Shown in pieces: positions 4,872 through 64,000 of a stretch of DNA of 64,000 nucleotides. Positions within the stretch are counted from its first letter, which is position 1; each line of letters opens with the position of its first letter. Source of the stretch: Psilocybe cubensis (taxonomy: Eukaryota); the NCBI GenBank assembly GCA_017499595.2, contig CM039009.1, forward strand, positions 1,984,001 to 2,048,000, read 5' to 3'. The notes beneath the pieces are model-generated. The model made no database searches, had not been told where the DNA came from, and worked only from the letters and a program-made list of their open reading frames with translations. A program made the position numbers and the translations under genes.

Positions 4872-7800
4872 ATGGGAAAGGGCAAGGGCAAGAGAACTCA
4901 GGAAATCTGTGTGCGTTGTCCTCGATGCAACAAGCCATTCGCTAAGCATGCAGATGTCCAAAATCACATCAATCAACCAAAATCGGCATGTCGTTTTCAA
5001 TATGAGAACGTTATGCATTTTCAGTCCAATCGTTCAAGCTCTACATCTAGATCAGCAACCCCCGTATCTCGAGACCCTTCTCCCGAAATTGGTAATTTTA
5101 TGGAAGTGGACTATATCGACAATTTTCTTGGCGCGTCATCAGAGATGGAAGATGACCCACCCCCCAAGGCATCAAAATACAACTATCCGTACGTGAAGGA
5201 GGATTATAACGGGGCTGGAAGAGCATTTGGAACAGGCCTTACATTCATGGATCAGCTCAAACAGGATCAATTCGAACCCCAGCGGGCGGAAAATTTGTAC
5301 TATCCTTTTGCCTCGAAAGATGAATGGGAGCTCTCCCTGTTCCTACTTCGCTCTGACATGAGCGTAGGAATGCTGAATGATTTTTTGAAACTTGAACTGG
5401 TAATTGAGCGTACATTCCCATCATTATTTATTTCAGCTGAGTCGATCCCGTATAGATAAAAAAACTCAACTTGTCCTACAAGTCGGCAAAAGATCTACGC
5501 AACCGGGCAGAGATCCTTCCCTCTGGTCCGCAGTGGAAGAGTCAAACGATCATACCAGAAATACCAAGCAAAAATCAGCTAACGCTTTTTTACCGCGATG
5601 GATTGGAATGTATCAAGGCGCTTCTCATCAGTCCCTTGCTCCAAGATAGCATGCACTTTAGCCCATTCAAGCTCTTCGACAAGTGCAACGAGATGATGCG
5701 GGTATACACTGAGTGGTTTAGCGGTGACATTGCGCATTTTATGCAGGTTAGTAGCAATGCCTTTGTCCAAGTTTGACGACAGTATAACAAGGTTCCCAAG
5801 GACCAGCTCCCAAAAGGAGCAACACTTGTACCTCCTATTATTTCCACGGATAAAACCAACATTTCCAACATGACCGGAGGCCGTGTCGCCTACCCTGGCC
5901 TTATCAGCATTGCCAACATAATGATGAACGTTAGAAACAAATCGTCAAATCATTTATTCCTTCTTTTTGTTCTTCTTCCCATACCAAAGTTTCTTCATCG
6001 CTCCAAAGCTGTGAATGGGATGATGGCAGCACGGCTATATCACCAGTGCATGGACATTGCTCTAGAATCGGTCAAACAAACTGCGAGGGTGGGAACCACC
6101 ATGGCAGATGCATTGGGGAATAATCGTTTCTGCTTTACACCGCTTGCTGCCCTTATCGTTGATACTCCAGAATCTGCTCTGGCGGCTTGCGTCGCAGGAT
6201 CCACATCCTCTGTGACGTTGGCACAATACGAGACGTTTGGGGATTCCTTTCGCCACCCTTCCCGAACTGCAGATCATACAATCAACACCATCATGGCCAT
6301 CAACAATGTTAAGCCCCCTAATCATCTCGAACCATATCTAAAAGAAAGCAAAAAGCACCGTCTCAATGGGGTTCACCTACCGTTTTGGAGAGATTGGCCC
6401 TTGTCTGATCCTTCTGCATTCCTTACGCCTGAACCCCTTCATCACTGGCACAAGATGTTCTGGGATCATGATGCAAAATGGTGCATTGCTGCAGTCGGAG
6501 GTTCCGAATTGGATTTTCGATTTTCGATTTTACAGCACCGCACTGGTTTCCGACACTTCAAGGAAGGGATTTCTTCCTTGAAACAAGTGACCGGTAGGGA
6601 ACATCGGGACGTTCAGCGATACATTGTTGCTCTCATTGCAGACACAGTCAGTACACCCTTTATCTTAGCCATCCGGTCTCTGATGGACTTTCGGTATCTC
6701 GCACAATCTCAAACAATCTCCGAGGCAATGTGTCTCAGAATTGAGCAGGCACTGCAAGATTTCCATGCCAATAAACAAGCCATCCTTGACGCGGGAGCAC
6801 GTCGAGGTAAAAAAAACAACCCAATCGATAATTTCTATATTCCAAAACTCGAGTTTTTGCAAAGTGTAGTACACGCAATTAGACTAAATGGATGTGCAAT
6901 CCAATGGTCTGCAGACACGACAGAGCATGCACATATCGAGGTGGTCAAAGCCCCTTCCAGTTCCAGCAATAATCAAAGATACGAGCCTCAAGTTTGTCGA
7001 TACCTTGATCGTCGTGACAAATTGCGCAATTTCGATTTGTTTACAGCTATACGAGAAATGAGGATTGATTTTCGGGCTATACACTCTGCAACAATTACGG
7101 ATGAGGAGGAGCAGGAGGAGGGGGATGAGGGGGAGGAAAACGGCGAGGTTGTGATGGACACAACGTCAGAACTTCTTTCAACAATCATGCCGATGACAAC
7201 CTTTCAATCAGCAAAGTCCAATCGCATTGTGGATTACTTCTACAAAGCTAGTCTCTATGAGCGTGGCGTATTGGAAGGCCCAGTCCCCTACAGAACATTT
7301 TCTTGCAGCAAAAACGTTGTTGCCCATTTATCTAGGGATGCTAGTTCCAAAAGATTGCATATCGACGAGGTTGCGAGCATTTTTAAAATTCCCGACCTAC
7401 GACCAGCAATTGCCGATTATGTGTCACTCATCAATAAGGAATCAAATCCGAGACAGACCAATTCTCGAGGTTATCACATCAAGGGGATAACTGGCAGGCG
7501 TGTTTCTCCTCCCGGTTGTCCGTTGCCGTATTCAAAACTTGAGGTATGGCATAAGGTCCGTATACAGTCGACTGCGTACCAATACCCTCATGAGATCCTG
7601 GAGGCAGTCACACTTAATGCATATCCGCCATCTAACAAACATCCTTTTGGATACTTCGATTCAGCAATCATAAACGTGGATGAATCTGAGGAGTGGCCTC
7701 GCAGCGGGCTTCAAGGTAGTACTTCTTTGTGACTTTTTTCCGAACCCCGTTGACCAGCCAATATTGTAGGCCATTCTGTCGTCGACATTCGTATTATTTT

Positions 7801-10637: not shown

Positions 10638-10949
10638 TAGGGTCAAGATACTACATTGTAAATAGACACTTAATTGCCTTTAAAAATGTACATTTTATTG
10701 CTTGATATGATTGAAGAGCTTTACTGAGACCAATCACATTGGACATCAAACTCTCCTAAGTCTGGAATCGTACATAGAGATAGCTAGGAAAATCCAAAGC
10801 TCGCAGTAGTAATGTTGGAATGCTACAGAGCTCAACGGAGCATCCCGCCGATGACACATGACGCTATACTGTCTACAGCCCACTTTGATGCTACATCCGG
10901 TTGGCAGGACAATACGTTGAGTTACCTCCGAAAATCCGGATTTACTGAT

Positions 10950-12883
10950 GTCCCAGAATTCGATCCGCTTCGTCGAGAAACCGCAAAAACAGTAGGAGAA
11001 TGGATTCTACGAAACTTAATCTACAGATATGGAATCCTCATCGAAATTGTCACGGATAATGGACCCCCAATTGTCAAAGCTTGTGAATACCTTTCCAAAC
11101 GGTATCATATCAATTACATTCGCATCTCGAGCTACAATTCACAAGCAAATGGTCTCGTTGAACGCAGCCATTTTGATGTTCGTCAAGCCCTCTTCAAAGC
11201 ATGCGATGGGGATCAATCCAAGTGGTCTCTATACGTTCACTACGTTTTCTGGGCCGAAAGAGTTACAGTACGACGTCGGATGGGATGTTCACCTTATTTT
11301 GCACTTACAGGAACGCACCCCTTGCACCCCTTTGATATTGTCGAAGCCAATTACCTTCTACCGCCCCCAGATTCCATTCTATCAACCACAGACCTTATTT
11401 CTCGCCGCGCAGTCGCTCTCTCAAAACGTCGATCCGATCTTGCAAAGTTACACTCAAAAGTGTATGAAGAACGCCTCAAAGCAGCTACCCGATTCGAACG
11501 AGAACATGCCAACACAATTTGTGACTACGATTTCAAGCTCGGAGACTTAGTTCTCATTCGAAATACGGCTATCGAGAAGTCTCTCAACAGAAAAATGCGA
11601 GCTCGTTACCTCGGACCACTCATTGTCATTTCCAGAAACAAAGGAGGTGCCTACATACTTGCTGAACTCGATGGCTCCCTCTTCGATCGCCCTGTCGCCG
11701 CCTTTCGAGTCATTCCCTACTTTCCCAGACAGAAACTCGACTTACCACCCCTCGATGAACTCCTAGATGTGTCCCAAAAGCGACTACAACAACTTAAAGA
11801 CTCAGTTTCACCTGACCCGGATGAAGACCTTGATTCTGAAGATTACAACGCAATACCACAGGACAACGACCCCCTCTAGTTTACATTACAGTTGGGAGGA
11901 GTCTTCGACATTCAACAGCCTACTTCAAACTTTTATCCCACATACACGACAGCCACCTTCTTAATCCAGTTTATTCACTTCCATTTCAATTCCATTTCAT
12001 TCTTGATTTTTCATCCACCACTCTCCATATATTGATTTTCAAACTTTTATACATCTTTCCTATTCGCACAACTGACTGGGGACAGTCAGATTTTCAGTTG
12101 GGAGGAGATGATACGCAGTGCAGCTTGCTAACCACGGAAATCGCGCGCACCAAGTCCACTTTCCCACGCTTCACATGATCGCGGAACATCAATACACCAC
12201 CGACATCGCCCACCGACACCGATATTCCTCGCTCCCGATTCAATTACTCATTTATTTCTCATCACCATTCCATTTTGTATGCGTCTTCGTAATATTTTAA
12301 CAAATTTTCTTCATTTTAAAACCTGAATTTCATATACAGCACAGCTTTCATTTTACCCACACTTTCCGAGTAGACACAATAGGCGCCCGATTTCGCACCC
12401 TTGCCGTTTCCTCCCCATCCGAGAAAATTTTACAATTTAATTAATCTACTTCTTCTGTAGACTTACTCATAGTGTCTTGGCCTCCATATTTCGTGTTCGC
12501 TTCGCTTATCTCTTTACAAACTTTGTTTTACACACACACCCCAGCTCAGTAGTATAAAAACTAGCTAGAAAATTATCTACACAATAACACATCGTTCACC
12601 TCTCGTTTCCATCGTGCTCTCATCGTTTTCAGCTGGTTAAGAAGACCAGGGAAACCCTCTCGCACCCTCAGACGCCTCTCATAGCGGTTCTCCAGTTGCT
12701 TTTACTTGTTTACTCTTTTTTTGTTTGCTCGACGCACCTAGGACGCCGCTGGCACATCAACGTTTTCCCTATTGATTTCTTACGATGCGTGTACTAACTT
12801 GGCCAAGTTTTATTTTTTGCATTATTATTTAGATAAACCCAGTTTCCACCGTCACTGTTCCGTAACGAATCAACCAGCATACA
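10950..12883 (+). mobile_element. 5'-truncated Ty3/Gypsy LTR retrotransposon: integrase C-terminal part, polypurine tract and 3' LTR
   Basis: ORF 10812-11879 contains IVTDNGPP, YNSQANGLVERSH and a GPY/F-like YLGPLIV. The CTGACTGGGGACAGTCAG hairpin and PPT GGGAGGAGA (12100-12108) are followed directly by TG at 12109. No gag, RT or 5' LTR is visible. Confidence 0.88.
12109..12883 (+). repeat. Probable 3' LTR (TG...CA); right end approximate
   Basis: Starts TGATACGC right after the PPT; plausible end AGCATACA at ~12883; internal TATA-like TATAAAAA at ~12553. No second copy in the window to confirm the end. Confidence 0.6.
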
Positions 12884-12959
12884 ATAGAAATCGGCCTGAA
12901 TGAAAGTTACACCCCATTACTTATCTATTTTTACTATAATTTTGATTTCCTCATTCTAT

Positions 12960-15451
12960 TCGACCCTTTCTATTCTGCTCCATAAAGGTTTTTTCATGAT
13001 TGTAGCTACTTTGATGGTATTCATGCCTTGTAGATTAGATTGCGTTGTTGCCACGTCCAGTTGTATTTGTTTTGGGCTATTAATGCCATACATATTTGAT
13101 TCGGAATGATTTTGGTGTGACCTTTAACCTTGAACATTGAATATTGAATCATCCAGGATTGAGTTTGGTCTAACAATTTCCTTGTGTCAGCCTCTTCATC
13201 TTCCCCGCCGATTTGATTTCGTCATATAATGCATACATATGACGCGCCACGTACTACACCAACGACATACAAACCGCTTTTGGAAATGAAACTTCTCTTT
13301 TTGGTCGTGTGGCGGATGACACGAAGGAGATCGAGGGAGGCTGAACAAAAACAAGAACATACCCTGGGTGGGTATAAGAATGCTGACGGTCAGGATGGAA
13401 ACCTCCATCGTCTCTTGACTCTCTTCCACAACCATCTCATCATATTTTGGAAGAGTTCCCCTAAATCCTTTGACGATTTATCTACTTGTGATAACTCTTA
13501 CTCAAGTAACGTAAGTTAGACTTAACTCGCCCTTGTCAAACATTCTAAGAACATCATTGAACAGCACTTTCATCACCCCGCCTTGAGCTATCATCACCGC
13601 TCTTGGTTTGGCAACTCCTCACATGCGTAAGTCCATCTCGCCTAGGTTAGAACATTGTTAACAACGCCTCACAGCAATTATACCATCCCGCCTTGGACCA
13701 TTACCGTCAGTCCCATCGCCCTAAAAGCCACTAACCAACCCCACACAACGCAGGCTCGCCCACACACAACGGTCAAGAAGCCCAGCACAGAAGTATACCA
13801 CTCCATTCAGGTCGCGTATTGCCAGTCTGCTGGTGTCAGGCTGGTGTGCGCGATTGTCTTAGGACATGCGGGGCAGTTGACATTTGACCCTACCCGCTCG
13901 ATGTGTGGCACCCCCCCGCCGCCACCCCTGTAAATCGGGGGTCGTGGAAACCAGGGGGTGAGGTACGGAGTGCTGGTTGGTTCGCCCACCCCCCTAAGCA
14001 GTAGCGGTAGACTTGCAGGACATCGTCGCTTCTACCGTGAATCGCAGGGGTGGAGATTGATAAAAGCTTGCTTTGGACCCTGTGTGTTGGGCGGGCTTAG
14101 GCGAGCGGTGGTTGGCGTGAGGTTAGTTTGTTTCTTTTCGTTGTTTGATGTGGTTGATTTATTTCCTTCTTAGCCATGGACGACAACCAACACGATACCA
14201 CAAACCATTGACTGCAATACTTTAACACGTTTCGTTCCTCAAATTCGGCGCAATAACCTTGCTTACCAGTCTATGCCATAGTATCGATGTTTCGTTGGGA
14301 TACGGATGAGCACTCCTCTGGAAAGGGCGCCTTCAGTGAGTCTCGTATACCCACCGGTCTTTCTACTTTTGACATGCAATATTTCTAGCAATCGATATAC
14401 TCGAGATATTCTTTGCCCTGACATGCTTTGGAAAGATCATGACTGGTAATTTAACTCGCCCTCTCCCATTACCGCCTAATTTTGTTTCGCAAGGCTTGCA
14501 CGTCAAATTTGGCTGTTATCCACAATACACGCACACTGGCAGCGCATCAGGAACAATTATTCAAATATTGCCATTCGTCAGCCATTTGGAGCCAAGTCGG
14601 ATCTTGGGGCATCTGGTTTCTTTTCATATGTGAGTCCGCTCGCCAAATATCATATGCTCCGAAAGGGTGATCTTTCATTGTATTTCTATAGCGTGTTCTC
14701 GTTTCCGTTTTTGTTTTCATTCTTTTCATTTAGTTTTATTATTGAAGTAGCGACTACGGTTATGCGTCAGGTCTTTGCGTCGAAAGATCACTTTTTTGGT
14801 AAGTTCCAAGCCTATTCTTCGTCCCTCTCTAATTTTAGGTGTTCAGGACTCGTGAAACCTCACTATTTGCCTACCAGTTCACATGCAAAGCACTCTAAAG
14901 GCTTTCGCTCGCTTTATCCACCACGATATTCAAGCCTGTTACCAACCTCCAATTGCAAAGAACCGGGCAAAGTCAGAATTATTCACCTAAATTGAAGCGC
15001 ACTATTGCCTTTCATTCCACGATCTGAGGGAGCCCTTACGCCTGTTCAAACACCGAGTCACAAAGAGATCTGATGCGTATGACCTTCTTATTTTATGTGA
15101 GTTTACTCCGTAATTCCATTAGAGCGCGGATACTAACTTGCCCAGGTTTTTTTCTTCCTTTAATTTAGCTAGAAACCTGCTTTCGACATCCACAATCACA
15201 GTTTCGAGATTAACCCCAACCCGAGATATTAATATCGATTACAATCATCAACACAACACTCATATTTCAATACCTTCTCGTTTATTTGACCTTCTATTCT
15301 GCCCTGTGATGGGCCCTTTTAGTTACTTTTAATCGGTTTTATACAGCTTTTTGGCTTTGTAGAGTAGATCGCGTTGTTGTCGTGTCCAGAAGGACTCGCC
15401 TTGGGCTATTAATGCCATGAATATTTGATTCGGAATCGTCGTGTGACCTTC
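12960..15451. repeat. Pair of diverged ~160-bp direct repeats (12960-13126 and 15285-15451)
   Basis: Collinear shared blocks TTCTATTCTGC, TGTAGA.TAGAT.GCGTTGTTG, GTCCAG, TTGGGCTATTAATGCCAT, ATATTTGATTCGGAAT and GTGTGACCTT. Confidence 0.85.
13730..14127 (+). ncRNA. Candidate structured RNA of unknown class
   Basis: Nested helices with several G-U pairs on the + strand: 13754-13775/14075-14096, hairpins 13812-13853 and 13864-13904, 13922-13930/14045-14053, 13953-13960/13987-13995 and 14004-14011/14031-14038. Confidence 0.4.
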
Positions 15452-16177
15452 AGTTTTGATACAGCAGATCTGTGGGGCCTTAGTACAAGCACATTATCGC
15501 ATTTTTTCTGGTTAGTGCGTTACGAATCGTCATTCCATTGCATTCCCTGTCATTCCATGTCTTTATTTGTTTGCTGTTTGGCCACTATGGACCCATATTT
15601 GTTCTTGCTTGACCGTGCCACTGTGCCTATAAATACCCGACGCGACGCGTTTTTGTAAATTCAAACCCCTTTCCCCTGTACCACCACCATCACCTCTACT
15701 ACCGCCAACGTCTCAAGTGGCTATATGCGCCTCAAACCTCTTGTTTGTCTACTCCTCTTTCCTCTTTACTAGGCGTTTCACTCACCTCCTCTTCGTGCCT
15801 TCACATTCGGCATCCCCCCTGTCTCCTTGCTAGCTCAACATTTGCACAGTTAAAGTGACTATCAAGGCGGTCTTTCTCACTTAAGAGGTGTCTTTTTAAT
15901 TTTCCAATGCTGTTTCGACGCATATATTCAACTTATTCATTTTTCTCCAGCATTCTCAGATGGCGCTTCACAATATTGGCGGTGACCGAGTAGTCAGTGG
16001 AATGTATCTGGTGGTGAGTATATGCTATCCAAACGGTATCTTCCGTTGCATAAAATATTTATTCACATCTGAATAGGGACGTGGCTATATGCGCCCCATA
16101 CTCTGTCGATTTCACTTTGATCTCTACTGAGATCAAAAGACTCGCCACACTTTGAGTTCCGGCATCTCGGCTCGGCA

Positions 16178-16522
16178 GCATTGGTCTCCCCCCTTCATGC
16201 TTCCCAGAACGACTGTTATCTTATCTCTGGGTGGCAAAAGGATCCTGACGCGTTCTTGATGTTGGAACGCGATAGCACCTTTCCGTGCTGTTTTGTGTAA
16301 CATCTGTTAACGACCTCAGGTACTTTTTGCCTCTCGAAGGTGGATATCGGTTCATCGGTTGCATTGGTCTCCTCATTCTACCTTACGCAATCATGCAGAT
16401 CTTACCTCCCGCGAGGCGAAAGGGCTCCTGGCGCGTTCTTGATGTTGGGAAGTGATAACACTCCGCTGTAAAATTGCGTCCAACATCTGTTAACGACCTC
16501 AGGTACTTTTCGCCTCTCAAGG
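16178..16522. repeat. Diverged tandem repeat, period ~183 bp (2 clear copies)
   Basis: GCATTGGTCTCC at 16178 and 16361; CGCGTTCTTGATGTTGG and AACATCTGTTAACGACCTCAGGTACTTTT occur in both units. Confidence 0.9.
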
Positions 16523-40682: not shown

Positions 40683-43600
40683 ATGATAAGGCGTGGACGT
40701 GGCGGCCGGTCACGGCCTGTAATAGTAAACTGCAGATGCAAATCGCACTGCACAACGTTCAATGCCGCTACTGGACTCTATGAGGGAGATGGTATACTTC
40801 AGACACGTCCTACACGCGACAATCACATGAAAGACGATAGACTCCTGATAGCACTTTCTAATCACGCACCACAGCCAGTACATGTTCCTGACGGCAGCAC
40901 AGATGGCTCACCGTTTCAAGAGGTCTTTGATGAAATAGATATCATAATGTCCCAGTCACTGTCTGATGCTCTGCGCCCGTTTGACTTTGTAAACAAACCA
41001 GAAGACAATGGCCAATTTGTTTGGCCCAATGACGACGAAATTCTACTTCCAAATCATGGGCTATACTCGTTGAAAAACAGCCTTGTCAACAGAACATACT
41101 TACTTGCTGCGCATCGTCTTCGAGAAATCTACAACTGGGCAACAAATCCATTCATCCAGCACTCTGATGACATTACACCTTTATTGGATTGTATTATGGA
41201 GAAAATGGGAGAACTTGTACGGATGAAAGAAGTTCAGTGGTCTCAGCAGCGAGGAAATAGCCGCGTAGATGGTCCATACGTCAATACAGGTATGAAATCC
41301 CTTGTTCAAAAAGAATTATATTGTGCTGATTATAATACTGGCTTATATCGCAGATATATATTTCACACCTCTGCCTTCATTGAATCCGAGACAGAGGGTT
41401 GCTGTCTATATTTCCCTCGTCATGGAAAATATGTTTTTTGTACCGCGGCGAGCATTACGAACTTTATTGGCAGGCGCTCGATCTCTATTACGCTCTAACA
41501 ATGCATCCGAGACTGTTGTGGAAGAGATACCGGCGGATCCGCAGTCAGGAGCACATAGAGCACGCTTGAACCCTGAAACACGCCAATTTGTTGTTTGCCC
41601 AACCTGCCACAAACTATACCCATTCAAACCCGGTGATAGTCCTCTCAACGACAGTAATCCATTCATTTCAATTTGTATGCAGCGCCGCACCCCCGAGTCC
41701 AATGAGTGTAACACGCCTCTTTGGAAAGAAAAAACTACAAGCCGTGGGACCTCGTACCTAGTCCCAATTCGGAAGTACGTCCACCAGGATTTGAAGCATT
41801 GGGTCGGACGTCTACTCTCTAGAAAGGGGATGGAAGAACTTATTGACAAACAGAATGTGGATCTCAGCAGCACCTCCCCCACCTCACCCGTTAATGACAT
41901 TTGGTCAGCAAGTATTGTTAAAAATCTAGAAGATGGTTCTGGAAACAAGTTCATTCCCGGTAATAATGGCGAGGGGAGGCTATTATTTAGCCTATCGGTC
42001 GATAGCTTCAACCCATTCCACAATAAAACCGCCAAACAAAGTATATCATCGACTGGTATTTGGATGGTTTTACTCAACCTCCCGGCACATCTTCGATATC
42101 TCCACGAAAACATGTATGTTGCAGGTGTTATCCCCGGCCCAGATAAACCATCGAAGGAAGACATATATCCGTACGTTGAACTGGTTATGGAAGATCTTTT
42201 GGATTTTTGGTACCAGGGTGTTCGATTTTCGCGGACCGAGAGTAGCCTATTCAGCCGACTTTACAAAGCTATGCTCATTCCTCTGATTTGTGACATGCTG
42301 GCTGCACGCCAGATGGCTGGCCTGGGCGCTACAACATCTCATTATTTCTGCACCTTTTGCGAAATTGATCTTGACGATATAGACATTACAGATCGAGCAG
42401 AATGGCCGTCCAAGGATTTGCAACATATTCAGCATGTTGCTAACCTTTGGAAGAATGCGGCCAGTGAAAAGGAGCAGCAAACTATTTTCGAATCATATGG
42501 CATACGGTGGTCGCCTCTTCATACGCTTCCATATTGGGATGTTATCCGTTTTACTGTCATTGATCCTATGCACGCGCTTGACCTCAATTTATTCCAAAAT
42601 CATTGTCGCTCAGTCTTTCAAATTAACACAGGCGCTCAGGGTGGGGATGGTATTGGACCCTCACTTCCTCATGAGCGACATTTTACATCCAAAGATCACC
42701 TTCAGCATTTGCGACAGTGCCGGGAGCTCATCCGGTCTAACGACGATGACCTAATGACAAAGCTTCTTTTGCATCCGCGCCCTGTTCTGTATCAGATCTG
42801 CGTTGAAAATGACATCATTGGAGAAGGTCACCGGCGCATCATCGGGACAAAATGGATACTTGTTAATAACATATTGGCTTGGGTGAGTACTCATAACTAT
42901 TGTATTTTGGACAATGTGGATTCTCATTACGGTTATATTTTTATACAGAGGAACAGTCCAAATTATGTAGATGTCAGCACTTCCCCAGTTTCTCTGGATG
43001 ATGACCCATCCAACGATGAATTGGCTATATCACAAACTCCTATTCTTCCTTTGGATAGTGGCCTTGATCGTGCGCTTATCATTCGAATCTTACGACATCT
43101 CTTTGCTAGCGAAGATGTTGAGGCATCTCATTCTCGGGCATATGGCCAAGGGTCGGTTGCTGCATTTCTGTACATCTGTAATCTTGTGCACATATCCACC
43201 AGTGATGTCGATACAAGAAGGAAAACCGCAAAGCGGCGTTTATTTGACAAGATAATTGGAGAAGTAAGCATATATTTGATGCAGTTTCGTTTAACCTGTA
43301 AAATTAACACGCTCTTGCTATGCAGATAGAGCGAAATACGGGGGCGTCTCAAGAGCTGCAAATGTATATCCCCACTGTAGACGATTCTGCACGTCCTGTA
43401 CTCGGAATCGATGTCATGGAAGAAATTTGGTCTGAGATGACACGTACTCAACTTCCAACATGGATTACCCCCGCACCTCCCGACTGGGGTACATTCAGAC
43501 GGGGGAAACTTAGCGCTGACAACTGGCGAGTAATTTGCTCAATTCACTTGCCTATTACGCTTATTCGGCTCTGGGCAAATGGAACTGAGCGTAAACGGAG

Positions 43601-55864: not shown

Positions 55865-56109
55865 GCTATCGAGATGTGAAGTCACCTCTGGTTATAATTA
55901 TGGCCCTATTGAATATTCAGTAGTGACCTCCATTCAACACCCAATCATCAAAAGTTTGCGGTATCTGAGTTCACATCTTCTTTCTCTGGACCGTGGAATG
56001 CAAAACAACTGAATTCACAGCAACCAAGCACCTACCAGCGATTGCTATCGAGCATCGGAATGGAGACCGATCAGCAAAAACAAGGACGAGATAATACATT
56101 TACGTCCAC

Positions 56110-57544
56110 TCACAAGTCCAACTGAAATTCCACCTCGAGGTCTTTCTTCCCCAACAAATGAGGCACCGCACTTGCCATCGCGTCCCTCCACCGGATAGCC
56201 TCCACAGTTTTATCCGATTCGGCAAATTGCATTTGATGCGTAGTTTGGATTCTTAGCACCAGCTTTTTCACTTTTTCGAAGCTGGGTCGAAGAAGAAACG
56301 TGTCCAATCTGTATAGCTGGACTCCTCTGACATATAATGCCGCTGTACTTGGAATGTTACCATTCGCAGGTCTCATGGCCCAGTTTATCGTAGTCTCTAT
56401 GTTAATCTCAGTCAAGCTTGGGGGTGGGTCGTTTGCGAAGAGGCCTTCAAAAAGCGCGATCTGTTTGATGGGTACGAACGTGGACAATGTGATGGAGCGG
56501 AGTCGACTTAGATGGTTGTATCGCAAAGGAAATTTTCCGACATCGGGGATAGGTGCAATGTCTACAACAGGTGAGAACAAATGAGTCCGAGTTGAATGAA
56601 CTAGCAGCATGAATGCTCGCCTTCACTCACGCAGTGGAAAGCCATTATCTATACACAAATGCTCTAAAGCCGGTGTAATCGAGAGCATTTCGTTGATCTG
56701 TGTGATGAAACCAGAAAAACCTCTCATGGTTTGCTTGATGCGCAATTTCAATGTAGTAAGATGCGGGAACATGCGGCGACCGGCGAGAGTGTGTTGAATA
56801 CCAGAGGGGTGGGATTCGAATAAGGAAGCATGATTTGCTGGTGTCATAGCTAGGTCTGTGTCCAGGGACTCCAATGGACATGGGAGGTGTCTGTCTTCCT
56901 CGTTCACGAAGTGTCTACTACCTGAGTCTTGAACCAACTCTGTAGCCACGGTTGTGTTGCATGTAACAAGGTGTTTAACATTGCTCTTCGATAAAATACC
57001 CTCATGTAGGCAATGAAAGTTATATAGTGATAAAGAATTTATCTGGGAGGTTTGCATGAAATCCTTGAGGGGTTCACAAAGTGACGAATTTGGACTGAAG
57101 TTGGCTGAAAACCACAAAACGAGGAACGAAAGGCAAGGGGAAGTGCGCGCTAGTCCGGGAAATGATACCGATGGAGATATTTGAGACATATTGGAAAAAA
57201 TAAAGAGGATATCACTGTTTCTGAAAAATCTTTTCACCTTCCGCGCATCGACTGAAGGGCGTACCACGATGGACCTGATGAACATGCAGACTGACAGAAG
57301 GGAATGGATTGAGTTTCCAGATCGAATCAGGTCCGCAAAAGAGGCGGCTCTTTTCTCGAAACTTTCAGGTTCGTTTGTTGTGCTGATGTATACCGTAGAG
57401 AAACGAGATTTATTTGCTTAAATATGACATCGGTGGGAGGTGAGCGCAATGGCAGTGTGTCGTCGGGGCAAAGCTTTGTACTGCAATGCAGGTAATTTCG
57501 TCCATAATCTCAACAGGTACACGCGGAGTGGAATTGGTAAACAT
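56110..57544 (-). pseudogene. F-box-like paralogue A, disrupted
   Basis: MFTNSTPRVPVEIMDEI start; frameshift near 57455-57460, then an in-frame TAA (CHI*ANKSRF) where the paralogues are open. Downstream CPLESLDTD and PLRYNHL blocks are retained. Confidence 0.75.
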
Positions 57545-58115
57545 GGGTGACCATCGGGAGGTAGTCAAATTTGAGAGGCAAGAGCACCAAAGCCACTGGA
57601 TTGACGAACCCAGTCGCCGGTTTCCCACAGCTGATTCAGGTTGTCTATCAAAGGCTTATGACTTTCTCACGCTACATGCCATGAACTCTTCAACAGACTT
57701 CGATATGCTTCCCTATGCTCCTCTATGCTCCCACTGTAACTTTTATTTATTTTTGCGACGCAGCGTCATCCTTGTAAGATGCGAGAACACCAACGAGGGG
57801 GTGTAGAGCACGAGGATTGATGATAGAATAACGCACGCAGCATGTTCTGCTATTGGTCAATTTCGAGTGACTCAGGCTCGCAACGGACTCGCACCACGAA
57901 GAACCAAATCACGTTAAATACTTGTTTATTACCAACAGTCTACTTTTTAAATGTACTTTGCTACCAATCAAAAGACTCCAAACCTCATACTGGTATCCTA
58001 TATATGCTACTGAAACGCATCGGCTCCTTGGGAAAAAGGCACTGGTCATAGCTATCAGAAATAATAACGCCAACGTGGTCAGTGGGTAAGAAGACAAGAG
58101 CAAATTCATAACCAC

Positions 58116-59617
58116 TCACAACTCCAATTGGACATTCACCCCTTGGTATTTCATCTCTAACAGGCCGGTTATCGCTTTCCTTACGGTGTCCCTCCACGGG
58201 GTCACAATCCCGTCAACCGACTCTCTGTCCAGGTCTTCTGGTTGGAATATATCCATTGCCATACCGATTCTGACGACGAATTTTTTCACTCCTTCAAACC
58301 CAGGTCTGCGTAGAAACGCGTCGGTTCTATGCAGACCGAGCCAGCTGATATATCTTTCTGCATCTCTGACACCATTCAAGAGTCCGTGGCGCAGATCTAT
58401 CATGATATCTATGACAACCTCACGCAAGCTCGGGGGAGGTTTGTCTGCGCAGAGACATTCGAGAGTCTCCATCTGCTTATAATGTGGCGCGCTTGCGCCC
58501 AATGAGAAGGACCGGAGCCTAGTGAGATGGTTATATCGCAGAGGCAACACACTGCCCTCTGGACGAAATTGAATTGCTGTAATGGAATGAATAAGAGGGG
58601 AAAACAAATTAGATATAGATCCTCTTTCCTTGACTGCCCACACTCACATAGCTTTCCAGCGTTGTATATGAACAGATCTTCGAGGACCGGTGTATTCAAA
58701 AGTATCTCGTTAACCATTATATTGAATTCTCTAGTGTCAATTCTAGAATGGTACAGCCTCAGCCTGCTAAGGAACGGAAACATAACACCGTCAAGTAGAT
58801 GGTGCTCAGCACCAGAAGAGTGGGAGTAGACGCGGAATAGTTTAGCATGTTCAGCTATTGTCATACCCATATCAGTTTCAAGGGACTCCAACGGGCATAT
58901 TCCGAGCTGACTTTCTTCTTCCTCCGAGTCTGAGTCAGGAATACTATTCAAGTCCTCAACTAAACTTGAATCTGCTGATGCTTCCGTTGCCTGGTATAGA
59001 ATAAGGTGTTTGATATCACTTTGCGATAGTATTCCTTGCTGTAACCCTTGAACGTTGTAGAGTGACAGATGGTTGAGCCGCGATGAATGTATAAAGTCCT
59101 TGAGTGATTTGAACACCATAGCAGAAGGCGTGCATGGATGCACCAAGGCCAAAGTAAACGAAAATTTGACACGAGCAGTGACTGTGTTCTCCAGGCCAAA
59201 AGATGAATTGTGTGACGGCATCCAAAACAAATTGTGGAGAAGACACTGAAAATCCGCATTTCTAAAGACCCGACCAAGCTCTGAAGCCACTATCGGTTGT
59301 CACCATATCTTCGATCCTCAACACAACGGACCGAATGAACCCGCAAACCCCCGGTAGCAGAGTGCGTATTCCGTCTCTAGCCCGAATCAAATTCGCAAGA
59401 GACGACACTCTCCTCTCAAGGTAATTCGGCACTGTGACAGTATCATGTCTCTGTAAATCCAAGATGCCATATTTTCCGATGTGTACCGTCAAAAAAACGG
59501 ACCTTGTTTGCATGCATACAACCTCGGCGAGATGTGAGCGCAATAGCCGAGTGTGTTACAGATGACTTGATCCACAAGCTCAAGGGGCAGAGACACAGGG
59601 TTAGCGTCCACGGACAT
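58116..59617 (-). pseudogene. F-box-like paralogue B, disrupted
   Basis: MSVDANPVSLPLELVDQVI; homology to paralogue C is split over three ORFs (59489-59701, 59262-59543, 58409-59290) by a deletion and further frameshifts. Confidence 0.75.
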
Positions 59618-60115
59618 GGGTGGTGAATTATAAGAGGCGCTGGAAACGGCTTGCCACCGCGTATGACATCCGGCGCCGATCACAGGAAATTCGCACGCCA
59701 CCCCTTGGATTTATCAGTAAAAAACTTTACTAGCGCCCACTGCAGAGTACAGGATCGCGAGTCCATGTCACGTACTCTAGAGCCCATTGGCAGACCTATC
59801 AATGGGGAAAATGTATAATACAGACCAACTCTTCCTTGGGAAAGCTCAGCGGTTATCACTACTGGATGCCAACAGGTCCAAGTCTTTGCACAAATGTATT
59901 TACTTCGTTACAAGCATTATGTTTTCAGTGGCCAATAAAATACAAGTTTCTTTAAATGTACCTTCTCTTCCAACCAAAATACCCACATATTCTAAACATT
60001 AAAACGTTTAACTCCCCAGGATGACTCATCTGGATAGAGCCACTGGTCATAACTATAAAAATAAAACACCAATGCGCTCAGCCGGGCAAACCAAACAAAA
60101 AAAACTGGCAACGAC

Positions 60116-61620
60116 TCACAATTCCAATTGAATATTCAGCTCTAGATCCCGGGATTTCAACTCCAACTGGTGGGCCACTGCTTTCCTCACGGTGTCCCTC
60201 AACAGGATCACACCACCCTCAACCAACTCTCTGTCCGGTTGATATATATCCATAGCCATACGGAGTCTCACAACGACCTTTCTCACTTGCTCATAGCCCG
60301 GTCGGCACAGAAATGCGTCCAGTTTGTCCAGACTGAGACACCTGATATAATTTTCTCCTTGTCTGACACCCTCTGAGAGTCCGTTGCGTAGATCTATCGT
60401 GGCCTCCAAGATTATCTCACTCAAGCTTGGGGGAGGGTTGTCCGCGCAGAGACACATGAGGATCTCTATAGGCAAATTGGTTGGTATGTACGATTCAAAT
60501 GAGAATGACCGGAGTTTAATGAGATGACTGTATCGTAGAGGTAACACGCTGCGTTCTGGGGAATGCAAAATTTTTGCTATAAAGAACAAGTCAAAAAAAT
60601 GGAATAATTAGATATATTCTATCTTCTTGACAACCCACACTCACGTAGGTAATCCCCGTTGTATATAAACAAATCTTCGAGGGCAGGCGCATTCAAGAGT
60701 ATTTCGTTGGCCATTATGTTGAACTCGCGAGTGTGAATCCGCTTATGATGCAGCCTCAGCTTTGTAAGACACGGAAACACGACGTGGCCTGGAAGACGAT
60801 GTATAACACCAGAGGAGTAGGAACTGAATAGTGCAAAATGTCCATCTAACGTCATACTCATATCGGTTTCAAGGGACTCCAACGGACATGACCCAAGGTT
60901 CCTTTCTTCTTCAGAATCTAAATGGGGCGTACCATCCAAATCTTCAATTAAACTTGGATCAGCTGATACCTGTACTACCTTGTACAGAACAAGGTGTTTG
61001 ATATTGCATTGCGAGAGTAGTCCATTTGGTAGCCTTAGAACGTTATAAAGAGATAGACGGTCAAGCTGCGAGGAATAAAAAAAGTGCTTGAGTGATTTAA
61101 ACACCGTAGCGGAAGGCATCCAAATATACCGCAAGCCCAAAGTGAACGAACATTCGACACGAGTGGGGCACGCAACGCCAAAAGACAAATTCTGTGGCAG
61201 AATCCGAAACAATCTGTCAAGAATAAACTGAAAATCTGCATTTATGAAGACCTTATCATGCCCTGGATCCATTGTTGTCGTCAAATCTTGAACCCTCAGC
61301 ACAACAGACCGAATGAACCCGCAAACCCCCGGCATGGTACGTATTTCATCTCCAGCCCGAATCAAATCCGCAAAAAATGATACCCTCTTCTCGAGGTAAT
61401 TCGTCACTGTGACGGTATCGTCGCTCTGCAAATCCGACATGCGATATCTCCCAATGTGTACAGTCGAAAAACGGGCCTTGTTAGCGTACATACGACCTCG
61501 GTGAAATGTGAGCGCGATAGCCGATTGCGTCTTTAGTCCATAGCAAGGTTGCACAGCCAAGTAGATGATTTCATCGAGAACCTCGAGGGGCAAAACGACA
61601 GTATTAGTGTCCAGGGACAT
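60116..61620 (-). CDS. F-box-like paralogue C, intact, 2 exons
   Basis: LPLEVLDEII F-box-like start, RFSTVHI, PGVCGFIR, CPLESLETD; intron after YLRE; PLRYSHL...QLEL*. Confidence 0.75.
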
Positions 61621-62132
61621 GGGTGGTAAATCGTAAGAGGCGCTCGCAACTGCAAGGATAATATCGGGCGCCGATCAGAGAAAGTTCGCACGCCACCATG
61701 CATTTATCAGATCTAACTGGTGCCCAGGAACGCGAGCCCATCGGAACCAAATCGGAACCCACGTTGCCAGACTGCTGAACAGGAGCAAATGAATTATGCA
61801 GACCAGCCTTTCCTGCGAGCCAGCTTGACTTTAGCATTTTATCATTTTCGAACAGTAAATTACTTCAAAGTGCTAATACTTACAAGTAGCACAGATGTGT
61901 TTGCTCCATTAAAAGTCTCTAATTTTCAGTGGCAATAGAGTACAAAATTTCTTACTGTAAATGTACACTTCCACCAATCGGACCCTCATATACCATCTGT
62001 ATTAAAAAGTCCTGAACAGTTCCATCAACTCACCGGGATAAAGCCAGTGGTCATATCTAGTACATAAAAAAAACCAAAACCACCAACACGCTCAGAAAGC
62101 AACCCATACAACCACAAATTCAGGTAGAACAC

Positions 62133-63638
62133 TCACAACTCCAACTGGACATTCACTTCTAACGCTTTCATCTCCAACTGGCGATTCACCGCCCTCCTCA
62201 ACGCTTCCCTCCACGGGACCGTAGGCGAATCTTCATCCAAGTCATCCAACTCATATACATCCAAAGCCATACCGAGTCTCAAAACAACCTTGTCCACCCG
62301 TTCAAAGCCCGGTCTGCTCAGAAACGCATTCATCCTATCCAGACTGAGCCCCCTGACATATCTCTCCGCCTCATTGACACCATACGAGAGCCCCTTGCGC
62401 ATCTCTATCTGCGCCTCGATGCCGATCTCCGACAAGCTCTTAGGGGGCTCATTGTGAGCGAATAAACACTCAAGGATTTCTATCTGCTTGTACGGCATGC
62501 GCGTGCCGAGTGTGATGGACCGCAGCCTGGTGAGGTGGGTGTAGCGCAGAGGCAGCACATGGTGCGCTGGCCATATCATCACTTCTGCAATAAAAAAGAG
62601 GTCACCCCCAAAAACGAATTAGATAAGGGACCTACTCTAGTGAACACACTCACGAAGTTTATCCCCGTTGTCTACAAATAACTCTTCAAGGAGCGGCGCA
62701 TTCAAGAGGAACTCATTGGCCACAACGTTGAACTCCCTCGTGTGGATATACCTATAGTGCAACTTGAGCCGCGTAAGACACGGAAACATCACACCGTCCA
62801 GAATTCTCTGGCGCCCAACACCCTGGAAAAGCGCGGTGTGTTCAGCCAGCGTCAAACACAGGTCAGTTTCCAAGGACTCCAACGGACACAGCACATTCTG
62901 CCTTTCAGCTTCTTCTTCCTTGACAAACGTATTATCATCCAAATCTGATTCTGCTGCCGCCAGAGCACGATATAACACAAGGTGTCTGATACCGCTTCCC
63001 GAGAGAAATCCGCTCTGTAGTCCATGCACGTTACACAGAAACAGACGATTAACCTTTGACAACTCTGACCGCATCAAATCCCTAATAGATTGCATCACCC
63101 CAGAGGACCGTATCAGCGGATACCGCAAGCTCAAAACAAATGAGCACCTCTCCTGGGTAGAAGTAGTAGATCCGCCAACCTCCTCCTTCTTGTCCTCCAG
63201 CAACACCCTCCGCAAAATGAACCGCAGCTCACTATCCCCAAAAGACCTCTCAACCTCCTCATTCCCCCTCCAATCCCCAATCCTCAGCACAAACTCCCTC
63301 ACAAACCCACACACACCTGGAAAAGCAGTCCCGCTACCCAAATCATCTTCAGCGCGAATCAGCTGTGCAAACGAAGCCATTCTCCTCTCCAAGTCCAAAT
63401 CCTGCCCCGGGACACTAGCGCTGCTCGGATCCACAAGAGTCCCCACATTTAGACCAATGCCGGTGCCAATACGCACAGTCGCGAACCGCGAGACGTTTAC
63501 GCGCATATGGCATCGGCGGGATGTGAGCGCAAGTGCCGAATGGGTTTTCAGTCCAAAATATGGTTGGACAGCTATACCAACAATTTCATCTACAAGTTCG
63601 AGAGGGAGAATAACGGAGTTGGACGCAGAATTCGGCAT
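62133..63638 (-). CDS. F-box-like paralogue D, intact, 2 exons
   Basis: LPLELVDEIV, RFATVRI, PGVCGFVR, CPLESLETD, PLRYTHL...QLEL*; same intron position as paralogue C. Confidence 0.75.
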
Positions 63639-64000
63639 GGGTTTGGGGTATGCAGTCTATCTTAAGACAGTTGAAAGGGTTTGTCATTGCGACAGAGTAC
63701 AAATAGATAGGTATGTATCGTATCGGACGCTGATCAGCGTTGGTTCGCACGCCACTATCAAGCTGATCTGGACTAGCGCCCAAGTAGGAGCGCCATAACG
63801 TAATGATACGGATGTCTTTTATGTGGAGGTGTATCATTTGCTGCTAGTGTTCGTTTATTTGGAGCGCAACAATGATAACATGGCCTTGTACCGTATCATT
63901 TCAAACACTAAGTGTCAAATCATCGAACGAGTGTATAATATGTAGCAGTAGCCATGTTCCCGTCTAGAACTCTTGCACTTTATGTTTCTAGTTTTCATCC

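Follow-up and report, generated by a model that had tools for sequence, protein, structure and literature searches.

A GC-rich folded stretch of about 400 bases is exon 3 of a spliced multi-copy mushroom transcript

Background

Does the GC-rich stretch at 13730-14127 of this window (the whole 64 kb of DNA analysed, in whose coordinates all positions are given) encode a structured RNA of its own? A first-pass annotation had proposed so, describing a discrete, multi-branched RNA of about 400 nt that is set in AT-rich non-coding DNA, followed by a T-rich tract and possibly encoded by a mobile element. To our knowledge, almost no structured non-coding RNA domains beyond the universal ones have been described in mushroom-forming fungi, and the portions available to us of the literature on Psilocybe non-coding RNA, transposable elements and transcriptome do not describe this family. 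Here we report that the stretch is exon 3 of a spliced, multi-copy transcript and not a stand-alone RNA gene. The main present value of the analysis is this correction: the supposed novel RNA gene and its terminator are an internal exon and the intron after it. We do not regard exon 3 as a new ribozyme but as a candidate, though a modest one, for an RNA segment that is regulatory or non-coding; if its fold is under selection, it would constitute a lineage-specific structured non-coding RNA domain.

Results and discussion

The folded stretch is an internal exon

Twelve of the 15 public sequencing runs listed contain part of the stretch (5 studies; best word share 0.65; none listed as RNA). We compared runs with the window as contigs, not as raw reads, namely, X9, which is RNA-like by the tool's guess only, and X10, X11 and X12, which are DNA-like. 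Eight GT..AG introns of 48-62 nt on the + strand are skipped in contigs of X9, and we checked the splice-site letters of the introns directly in the sequence. All 15 joints listed (the best 15 of 35) come from X9 and none from the three DNA-like runs; seven of the joints listed are GT..AG skips of 48-54 nt, among them two that cut intron 2 differently. We placed introns 6 and 7 from one skip with two changed letters together with loose ends. Since the X9 contigs skip GT..AG introns on either side of it, 13675-14121 is exon 3 of a spliced transcript of about 1.65 kb, laid out as follows.

12784-13133, + strand: tail of an upstream copy of the unit, in direct repeat with 15123-15459 (nhmmer E 4.7e-19)
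13373-13378, + strand: TATAAG box, putative promoter, read in the sequence about 30 nt upstream of the start of RNA-like contig cover
13405-13510, + strand: exon 1, start approximate (X9 cover starts in bin 13409-13509; skip 13510>13565 in two contigs)
13511-13564, + strand: intron 1, 54 nt, GTAAGT..CAG (X9 skips)
13565-13626, + strand: exon 2, bounded by X9 skips
13627-13674, + strand: intron 2, 48 nt, GTAAGT..CAG (X9 skips)
13675-14121, + strand: exon 3, 447 nt, GC 0.58, non-coding in this copy (skips 13626>13675 and 14119>14172, the latter cut at +2)
14122-14173, + strand: intron 3, 52 nt, GTTAGT..TAG, GC 0.31 (X9 skips)
14174-14335, 14389-14445, 14494-14629, 14692-14798 and 14847-15096, + strand: exons 4-8 (GT..AG skips and loose ends in X9 contigs)
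14336-14388, 14446-14493, 14630-14691 and 14799-14846, + strand: introns 4-7 (X9 skips or loose ends)
15097-15145, + strand: intron 8, 49 nt, GTGAGT..CAG, with a branch-like TACTAAC (X9 skips)
15146-15459, + strand: exon 9 or 3' part of the unit, end approximate (X9 cover reaches bin 15328-15428)

The orientation of the GT..AG skips identifies the + strand as the transcribed strand, in agreement with the RNA strand proposed earlier. Contigs that join exon 3 to its neighbours by canonical intron removal, as expected of a spliced Pol II non-coding exon, occur in X9 alone (taken as RNA on the tool's guess). The X9 contigs covering 13790-13911 and 13884-14079 do not differ from it at any position over 122 and 196 nt, respectively. 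These RNA-like contigs show a spliced transcript and not unexpressed spacer, and by joining the stretch to upstream and downstream exons they contradict the idea of a discrete RNA gene of about 400 nt; the T-rich tract that follows the stretch is intron 3.

The TATAAG box is probably the promoter of the unit, as judged from the sequence. The loose ends of related X11 contigs keep TATAAGA, followed by a variable spacer, and likeness returns at 13401-13405. Intron 1 and exon 2 together look like a copy, about 110 nt long, of intron 2 and the first part of exon 3 (repeat 13561-13585 / 13671-13695, 80% identity). Another repeat lies upstream of the 12784-13133 tail and ends near 12760, where loose ends occur at 12759-12763 in X10, X11 and X12. 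We also considered the direct repeats 12787-13133 and 15126-15459 as LTRs and rejected this reading, as each forms the 3' tail of one of two successive units and takes in a branch site and an acceptor.

Exon 3 is predicted to fold into a closed domain

The GC-rich island is confirmed, with GC contents of 0.56-0.62 in 200-nt windows at 13700-14099 vs 0.34-0.49 in the flanks. When both strands of 13730-14127 were folded, the + strand did better than its shuffles and better than the - strand; it reaches -178.5 kcal/mol with a z-score of -4.36 (0/100 shuffles as good), and the - strand a z-score of -2.67, about -2.6 overall (-2.45 to -2.74 with independent shuffles). With independent shuffles, the z-score of the + strand was -4.87 for global shuffling, -3.72 for 50-nt blocks and -3.71 for 25-nt blocks, and 0, 0 and 1 of 55 shuffles were as good, respectively. 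The best z-score on the + strand in 200-nt local windows within the region is just -1.6, and that of the exact exon 3 is -2.52 (2/100 shuffles as good). The excess stability comes mainly from a long-range stem and one hairpin, namely, the closing stem and hairpin 1 in the following list of predicted elements.

13730-13751, + strand: outer 5' arm, whose partners within 14099-14127 vary with context
13752-13781, + strand: 5' arm of the closing stem, pairing with 14070-14098
13811-13854, + strand: hairpin 1, two 9-bp helices separated by a 1-nt bulge, with one apical pair in addition and 5 G-U pairs
13868-13897, + strand: hairpin 2, weak (-10.5 kcal/mol, z-score -1.93, 7/200 shuffles as good; - strand -11.4)
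13909-13960, + strand: hairpin 3, made of C-runs and G-runs, with 13932 in its apical loop
13986-14053, + strand: hairpin 4, including GCGGUAGA/UCUACCGU (probabilities 0.79-0.99)
14070-14098, + strand: 3' arm of the closing stem, pairing with 13752-13781

Within spliced exons 1-5, the pair probabilities of the domain, including those of the closing stem, are 0.73-0.99; in the unspliced context the part 13752-13762 / 14088-14098 of this stem has probabilities of 0.5-1.0. The duplex of the two arms has an energy of -39.5 kcal/mol and a z-score of -5.81, and 0/1000 arm shuffles are as good. Hairpin 3 reaches -32.9 kcal/mol (z-score -3.19, 0/200) on the + strand and -31.3 (z-score -2.33) on the - strand, and hairpin 4 -28.5 kcal/mol (z-score -2.37) and -28.8, respectively. 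The interior C-runs and G-runs allow several alternative pairings.

The closing helix, hairpins 1 and 2 and the helix GCGGTAGA/TCTACCGT recognized in the first-pass annotation are all present in the minimum-energy fold. This fold uses other pairs than the proposed junction CCACCCCTG/CAGGGGTGG and lacks the helix AGGGGGTG/CACCCCCCT; it pairs instead 13909-13915/13954-13960, 13924-13930/13936-13942 and 13986-13992/14047-14053. A second correction concerns the argument for selection at the RNA level from strand-specific G-U pairs, which holds for hairpin 1 but not for the other elements. This hairpin, with pair probabilities of 0.93-0.98, is the sole clearly + strand-specific element (-27.6 kcal/mol, z-score -5.42, 0/200 shuffles on the + strand vs -14.4 kcal/mol, z-score -3.07 on the - strand). 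Only 16 of the 139 pairs in the minimum-energy fold are G-U, and the closing stem is equally stable on the - strand (-53.5 vs -52.6; -57.9 vs -54.9).

The pairing 13730-13736 / 14121-14127 appears only when 13730-14127 is folded by itself. It would mask the donor site of intron 3 (GAG|GUUAGU); since its probability is 0.0 in the 996-nt unspliced context, we dropped this idea. The spliced context uses a different register.

Exon 3 matches no described RNA family and has no usable reading frame

As the first-pass annotation had supposed, the stretch matches no known RNA family. Scanning the whole 64 kb with Rfam 15 yielded no match at the gathering score, and ARAGORN found no tRNA gene. The five Rfam matches within 12500-15500 have E-values of 4.7 or worse, all far below the gathering score, and no ribozyme model reaches E 10 there. 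By these scans exon 3 matches none of the RNAs described in Rfam 15 (snRNA, SRP, RNase P/MRP, telomerase RNA, self-cleaving ribozymes, group I/II introns) and no tRNA. Telomerase RNA was also considered and rejected, as no 1.5-repeat CCCTAA template was seen on reading exon 3, and the family is multi-copy.

No functional reading frame runs through exon 3. Its three frames contain 6, 1 and 8 stops, the ORFs starting in exons 1-3 have only 4-17 codons, and its openness alone is unremarkable (P 0.10). Across spliced exons 1-4 (667 nt), the frame of 13676 contains just two stops (P(<=2) 0.031, P(<=1) 0.006; 5000 shuffles), with no in-frame ATG before 13901. We found no Pfam family for exon 3 and no homologous proteins of the kind expected of a coding exon, aside from one dubious relative, a 103-aa 'hypothetical protein' of Psilocybe cubensis, which was the only match among 61 candidates and shares the frame of 13676 at 78% identity across 36 residues. 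The full HMMER pass over 1.84 billion representatives returned only this protein and three repetitive ones (8-22 short stretches); neither these representatives nor 5.8 billion clusters gave a further relative, and a search started from the P. cubensis protein found none. The P. cubensis gene model omits the interior of exon 3, which is either treated as an intron or absent there, and requires another frame than the window's in exon 4.

The largest ORF of the unit lies downstream and is open only once exons 4-8 are spliced.

14287-14995, + strand: possible 165-codon ORF, an orphan preceded by five ATGs, whose ORFs have 2-17 codons

A fraction of 0.018 of 3000 exon-wise shuffles reach its length, and the longest unspliced ORF has 113 codons. 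Neither the exon 6 nor the exon 7 part has a Pfam family, the exon 6 part has no relative, the exon 8 part has no usable Atlas match, and no insertion or deletion falls within 14287-14995 among those listed. Because this ORF is barely longer than chance (P 0.018) and without relatives, the mRNA-leader part of our reading is uncertain, and the transcript may simply be non-coding.

The unit is multi-copy and its copies differ

At least seven distinct contigs in one DNA run (X10) carry the same difference at 13346, showing that the unit is multi-copy; X10 places 109 pieces on the 3 kb, with likeness classes of 25, 19, 27 and 38. Expressed paralogues carry 1-nt insertions or deletions at 13699, 13702, 13715 and 13883. 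The insertion at 13702 and the deletion at 13715 occur in one contig and restore the frame, and the changes at 13699 and 13883 are uncompensated. Among the 40 of 345 differences listed, those fixed in X10 number 10 in 13305-13674, one in exon 3 and five in 14122-14335, a deficit in exon 3 that hints at conservation. The sole fixed exon 3 difference among those listed is 13932 A>T, and this site and the 13883 deletion fall in or beside predicted loops. Several expressed paralogues per genome would provide a set of variants on which covariation and reporter tests could draw.

A low-depth X12 contig of 229 letters matches only 14057-14120, and its preceding 136 letters are unlike the window, weakly suggesting that the central part of exon 3 may not be common to all copies. 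Contig cover had also seemed to place the centre and the 3' exons in fewer copies (no X12 cover at 13914-14014; 41 vs about 120 in the same bin for X10; lower sums after 14116). As summed contig depth is not copy number, we did not count these differences as evidence and rejected the idea. A 21-nt piece of exon 3 matched two loci in metagenomes, which have only those 21 nt in common and are chance matches, and none of the viral contigs scanned matched.

Alternative explanations

On balance, we put somewhat better than even chances on exon 3 (13675-14121) being part of a nine-exon + strand transcript of about 1.65 kb, with a TATA-type promoter near 13373, that represents a lineage-restricted multi-copy family of a Psilocybe-like agaric and in which exon 3 acts in cis in the leader. 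In our judgement it is a genuine exon or leader that is expressed and does not code for protein, and its structure, as modelled in silico, is plausible. The ends of exon 3 would pair in the RNA via the imperfect 30-nt stem 13752-13781 / 14070-14098, and this closing stem would make an autonomous domain of about 350 nt with four hairpins. Acting in cis within a long leader, the domain of about -180 kcal/mol may, together with the five short upstream ORFs, hold back scanning ribosomes before the ORF 14287-14995, leaving the RNA poorly translated, or in effect non-coding. The fold may form in the cell, be under selection and have a role. It is nevertheless a serious possibility, though well short of even, that the same transcript carries the fold incidentally. 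In that case exon 3 would be GC-rich, low-complexity sequence (C-runs followed by G-runs, and CA and TG repeats), its transcript family would be non-coding or junk and evolve fast, and the stability of the fold would have no selected role. The interior helices, whose C-runs and G-runs have more than one possible partner, the weak local z-scores and the exon's own -2.52, the outer helices that vary with context, the low share of G-U pairs (just 16/139) and a central part apparently not in every copy, on the weak evidence of the X12 contig, are all consistent with this reading. However, the z-score stays at -3.7 under block shuffles that keep local composition, the complementarity of the arms (z-score -5.8) goes beyond composition, hairpin 1 is only half as stable on the untranscribed strand, and exon 3 has one fixed difference against 10 and five in the flanks (among the 40 of 345 listed). 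A further reading, which we consider rather unlikely, makes exon 3 a structured RNA domain that is under selection and specific to the lineage, its closing stem and hairpin 1 conserved and its apical part variable. The promoter and exons 1-3 would form the multi-copy module that carries it in Psilocybe-like mushrooms, and the domain would either switch translation or stability from within the leader or be processed into a stable RNA or small RNAs.

That exon 3 is, or recently was, coding in the frame of 13676, as part of an orphan gene family of which this copy bears a nonsense codon at 13931-13933, would account for the scarcity of stops in that frame (P 0.031), for the conversion of TAA to TTA by 13932 A>T, for the same-frame ORF called by the P. 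cubensis annotators and for the frame-restoring changes at 13702 and 13715. We find it unlikely, as an in-frame ATG is absent before 13901, exon 3 alone is not unusually open, no further relative or Pfam family was found in the databases searched, expressed copies carry uncompensated 1-nt changes at 13699 and 13883, and the P. cubensis model uses another frame in exon 4. A transposon relic, either an insertion of the foldback or MITE type bounded by terminal inverted repeats (TIR) or a mobile module of about 0.8 kb comprising the promoter and exons 1-3, is quite unlikely in our view. The family is multi-copy, the left end CACTAACC resembles CACTA-type ends, the arms pair about equally on either strand (z-scores -4.56 on + and -3.81 on - as terminal inverted repeats), and a Plavaka transposase (5870-7732), a Transposase_21 ORF (41422-43329) and an integrase-like ORF lie nearby. 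On the other hand, the Watson-Crick inverted repeats reach only 10-14 nt, reading the differing flanks of 13729-14128 revealed no 3-bp target-site duplication, neither the arms nor exon 3 recur within the 64 kb, let alone in unrelated flanks, none of the 24 loose ends listed (the best 24 of 60, in any run) lies at the arm edges, and the module contains functional introns. Of the earlier suggestion of an element-encoded RNA in a mobile-element-rich block, the repeated family and the transposon-rich surroundings stand, while no transposon hallmark ties the stretch to an element. Finally, it is highly improbable that the stretch is a novel structured RNA or ribozyme of about 400 nt that stands alone and ends at the T-rich tract; the folding z-scores on the + strand and the lack of a known family would suit this reading, whereas in the RNA-like contigs the stretch is spliced to an upstream and a downstream exon, intron 3 accounts for the T-tract, and the ribozyme models all fail E 10.

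Comparison with known systems

Exon 3 shares with MITE or foldback elements two complementary arms around about 300 nt, pairing on either strand, and a transposon-rich region. It differs from them in that its arms are imperfect (Watson-Crick runs <=14 nt), no target duplication or independent copies were seen, and the folded piece lies within an exon bounded by working splice sites. Hairpin 1 resembles fungal milRNA precursors in that it has 19 pairs, lies within a Pol II transcript and is stable on the transcribed strand only (13808-13857 when treated as a microRNA-like precursor, a window picked after the fold had been seen); two miRNA-precursor models match weakly at chance level (E 4.7 and 6.7), far below the gathering score.

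Long structured mRNA leaders with upstream ORFs limit translation, following the general principle of scanning inhibition. The unit resembles such leaders in that its largest ORF is preceded by about 730 nt, which include a very stable domain and five ATGs that open ORFs of 2-17 codons, but its main ORF is putative and without relatives, no conserved upstream peptide is known, and there is an intron 101 nt downstream of the ORF's stop codon. It is also similar to lineage-specific spliced lncRNAs of fungi, which are multi-exon Pol II transcripts with no conserved ORF, in its TATA-type promoter, eight short canonical introns, folded exon without a conserved reading frame and narrow taxonomic spread, but differs from them in that it is multi-copy, has a possible 165-codon ORF downstream, and contains one exon with an unusually stable closed domain.

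Splicing and structure of the transcript

We compared the contigs of four public sequencing runs, one RNA-like (X9) and three DNA-like (X10, X11 and X12), with the window over 12500-15500. Near-identical sequence occurs in public runs from five studies, 12 of the 15 listed rows carrying part of the stretch 13730-14127; none of these 15 listed rows is recorded as RNA, and X9 is labelled 'RNA?' by guess; its contigs total 20 million letters, roughly half as much as in the genome-like runs. The contigs of X9, RNA by this guess, show intron-sized skips with GT..AG ends on the + strand, and all 15 joints listed (the best 15 of 35) fall in X9 and none in X10-X12.

Features of the transcript (window positions)
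13373, TATAAG box
13510>13565, +, GT..AG skip in X9
13626>13675, +, GT..AG skip in X9
14119>14172, +, GT..AG skip in X9
14335>14389, +, GT..AG skip in X9
14444>14493, +, GT..AG skip in X9
15096>15146, +, GT..AG skip in X9
14629>14694, further intron with less direct sign (skip with two changed letters)
14799/14846, further intron with less direct sign (loose ends)

The eight introns are 48-62 nt long, with checked donors of the GTAAGT, GTGAGT, GTTAGT and GTAATT types and checked CAG, TAG and AAG acceptors. Given these skips and splice-site letters, the stretch is therefore the third of nine exons in an RNA of about 1.65 kb; this exon 3 spans 13675-14121 (447 nt, GC 0.58). X9 contigs are identical to exon 3 over 13790-13911 and 13884-14079, and the cover of this run starts in the bin 13409-13509. 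The first-pass annotation was largely right in what it observed. Its interpretation was right on the strand, the X9 skips running on the + strand as it had proposed, and its statement that the RNA belongs to no known family agrees with the absence of any Rfam match at gathering score across the 64 kb and of any tRNA or tmRNA, a permissive Rfam scan of 12500-15500 returning five chance-level rows (E 4.7 or worse). It was wrong about the kind of object, since X9 contigs splice as an exon what it took for a free-standing RNA; the T-rich tract that it saw after the fold is present, as intron 3 (GC 0.31) and not as the end of a free RNA.

Three further features of the transcript were observed. Its first ~36 nt (13401-13438) match short X11 contigs of very high depth (190 and 255) that diverge on both sides, and may be a leader motif common to other abundant sequences. 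Intron 1 with exon 2 (13511-13626) resembles intron 2 with the start of exon 3 (13627-13710), being 80% alike over 25 nt with common motifs such as CCCGCCTTG, as if an intron-exon module of ~110 nt had been duplicated in tandem. Through an 18-nt inverted repeat (14659-14676 / 14782-14799, 83% complementary), part of intron 6 pairs with the end of exon 7, directly before the intron 7 donor; over the 200 nt of 14600-14799 the z-score is -3.06, on the + strand only.

Copies, relatives and surroundings

X10 has 109 pieces on 12500-15500 in likeness classes of 25, 19, 27 and 38, including seven contigs with one common difference at 13346, and X9 has 31 (10, 8, 7 and 6). Since many distinct contigs per run fall on the same stretch, the transcript family is expressed and multi-copy. 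Within the 64-kb window exon 3 has no second copy; 12784-13133 is homologous to 15123-15459 (nhmmer E 4.7e-19), so that the former is the tail of another, upstream unit and the two are the 3' tails of successive units of the family. Another repeat directly precedes 12784-13133 and seems to cut off the upstream unit; it ends near 12760, and three runs have contigs that diverge there.

Differences among copies were seen for 40 of 345. Among these 40, the X10 fixed differences comprise 10 in 13305-13674, one in exon 3 (hairpin 3, apical loop) and five in 14122-14335, and a deletion at 13883 lies in or beside the hairpin 2 loop; as pointers from a partial list, these hint at conservation of exon 3. 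One low-depth X12 contig matches 14057-14120, its preceding 136 letters being unlike the window, which counts against a uniformly conserved domain.

The sole database relative of exon 3, by its most open frame, is the 103-residue hypothetical protein JR316_0009295 [Psilocybe cubensis], for which no relatives were found; in a full HMMER pass over 1.84 billion representatives the only additions were three repetitive proteins, each matching in 8-22 short stretches. This model has 28 of 36 residues in common with 13751-13858, omits exon 3's interior and reads exon 4 in a frame broken in the window. We take it to be a spurious gene prediction made on a paralogue; the match places the family within Psilocybe or close to it. 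A metagenome scan gave two chance 21-nt matches only, scans of viral contigs gave no match, and literature listings and the starts of abstracts contain nothing on such a transcript family.

The neighbourhood is rich in mobile elements, as had been annotated.

Open reading frames related to mobile elements
5870-7732, Plavaka transposase and DUF6830 domains, E 6.5e-53 and 3.4e-45
41422-43329, Transposase_21/tnp2, E 1.4e-11
10812-11879, 355 aa, weak resemblance to catalytic cores of retroviral integrases, E 1.3e-4 to the best PDB chain

The first two are CACTA-related DNA transposons; the third, with no Pfam match even at E 1, probably represents a decayed LTR-retroelement gene. Over 8-16 kb the GC skew is strongly negative. 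Elsewhere, a 93-nt unit is repeated twice in tandem at 1311-1496 (96% identity), and 56100-63700 (- strand) is a tandem array of period ~2.0 kb with repeat families 63-80% alike and at least three paralogous ORFs of 270, 333 and 333 aa (58409-59221, 60619-61620 and 62637-63638), the sole one scanned (60619-61620) having no Pfam family.

Folding of exon 3

Within 13730-14127, 200-nt windows have a GC of 0.56-0.62 vs 0.34-0.49 in the surroundings, as expected of the GC-rich island described earlier. The stretch folds more stably than its shuffles on both strands.

Folding energy against shuffles
+ strand, -178.5 kcal/mol; dinucleotide; z -4.36; 0 of 100 as good
minus strand, -162.9 kcal/mol; dinucleotide; z -2.67; 1 of 100
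+ strand; global (our own); z -4.87; 0 of 55
+ strand; 50-nt block; z -3.72; 0 of 55
+ strand; 25-nt block; z -3.71; 1 of 55
minus strand; global, 50-nt and 25-nt block; z -2.45 to -2.74; 0-1 of 55
exact exon 13675-14121; dinucleotide; z -2.52; 2 of 100

The block shuffles are informative, since the score might be inflated where a 5' part rich in C precedes a 3' part rich in G; under them no such inflation was found. The signal is uneven, 200-nt windows within the region being no better than z -1.6 on the + strand, and the excess stability is confined to the long-range stem and hairpin 1. The arms 13730-13781 and 14070-14127 pair at -57.9 kcal/mol (z -4.56, 0 of 1000 shuffles), their core (13752-13781 with 14070-14098) has z -5.81 (0 of 1000), and hairpin 1 (13811-13854) reaches -27.6 kcal/mol on the + strand (z -5.42, 0 of 200). 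The main rival to a functional domain is that the fold is incidental, which we judge the less likely of the two.

The + strand minimum-energy fold contains the closing helix, the hairpins 13811-13854 and 13868-13897 and the GCGGUAGA/UCUACCGU helix as first drawn; two proposed 'junction' helices are replaced, the same C-runs and G-runs pairing otherwise, and alternative short complements are numerous within 13730-14127. G-U pairs make up 16 of 139. The argument that they are strand-specific holds for hairpin 1 (-27.6 on +, -14.4 on -) but not for the closing stem, equally stable on the - strand, or for hairpins 2-4, which are strand-neutral.

In the computed fold of spliced exons 1-5 (834 nt), exon 3 forms a separate domain (helix probabilities 0.73-0.99), and within an unspliced RNA of 996 nt the checked part of the core stem (13752-13762 with 14088-14098) retains 0.5-1.0. 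The outermost helix, which would cover the intron 3 donor site, has probability 0.0 there, and the idea that the stem masks this site was therefore dropped.

Downstream of a second TATAAA box (~15630), 16100-16520 also beats shuffles by far on both strands (for 200-nt windows, z -3.7 to -5.2 on + and z -3.1 to -4.5 on -). The stretch contains two 100-nt direct repeats, 183 nt apart and 79% alike, with inverted repeats inside each.

Coding potential and proposed role

Exon 3 is non-coding, both if the RNA is an mRNA, with a leader of 730 nt, and if the whole RNA is non-coding. A decayed or orphan coding exon, which we consider improbable, would account for the frame that is nearly open across exons 1-4 (two stops in 667 nt, P 0.031) and for 13932 A>T, the sole exon 3 fixed difference among the 40 of 345, which turns an in-frame TAA to TTA in X10. 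However, the 6, 1 and 8 stops in the frames of exon 3 are not unusual alone (P 0.10), there is neither an in-frame ATG upstream of 13901 nor a Pfam family for the exon, and expressed paralogues vary by single-nucleotide insertions or deletions at 13699, 13702, 13715 and 13883. A transposon relic, to which the neighbouring elements might point, is likewise among the less likely readings, as is the free-standing RNA.

Correctly spliced RNA carries a downstream ORF of 165 codons (14287-14995) across four exon junctions (P 0.018, 3000 exon-wise shuffles), the longest unspliced ORF having 113. None of the 10 exonic insertions and deletions seen (of 22, several of the 10 from the same contigs) lies within it, two queried pieces found no relatives, and it is preceded by five ATGs that open ORFs of 2-17 codons.

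On balance we lean towards a spliced Pol II transcript, multi-copy and lineage-restricted, in which exon 3 is non-coding and the paired ends of this exon would close a stable domain. Such a domain might act in cis in the leader, where together with the upstream ORFs it could form a barrier to scanning.
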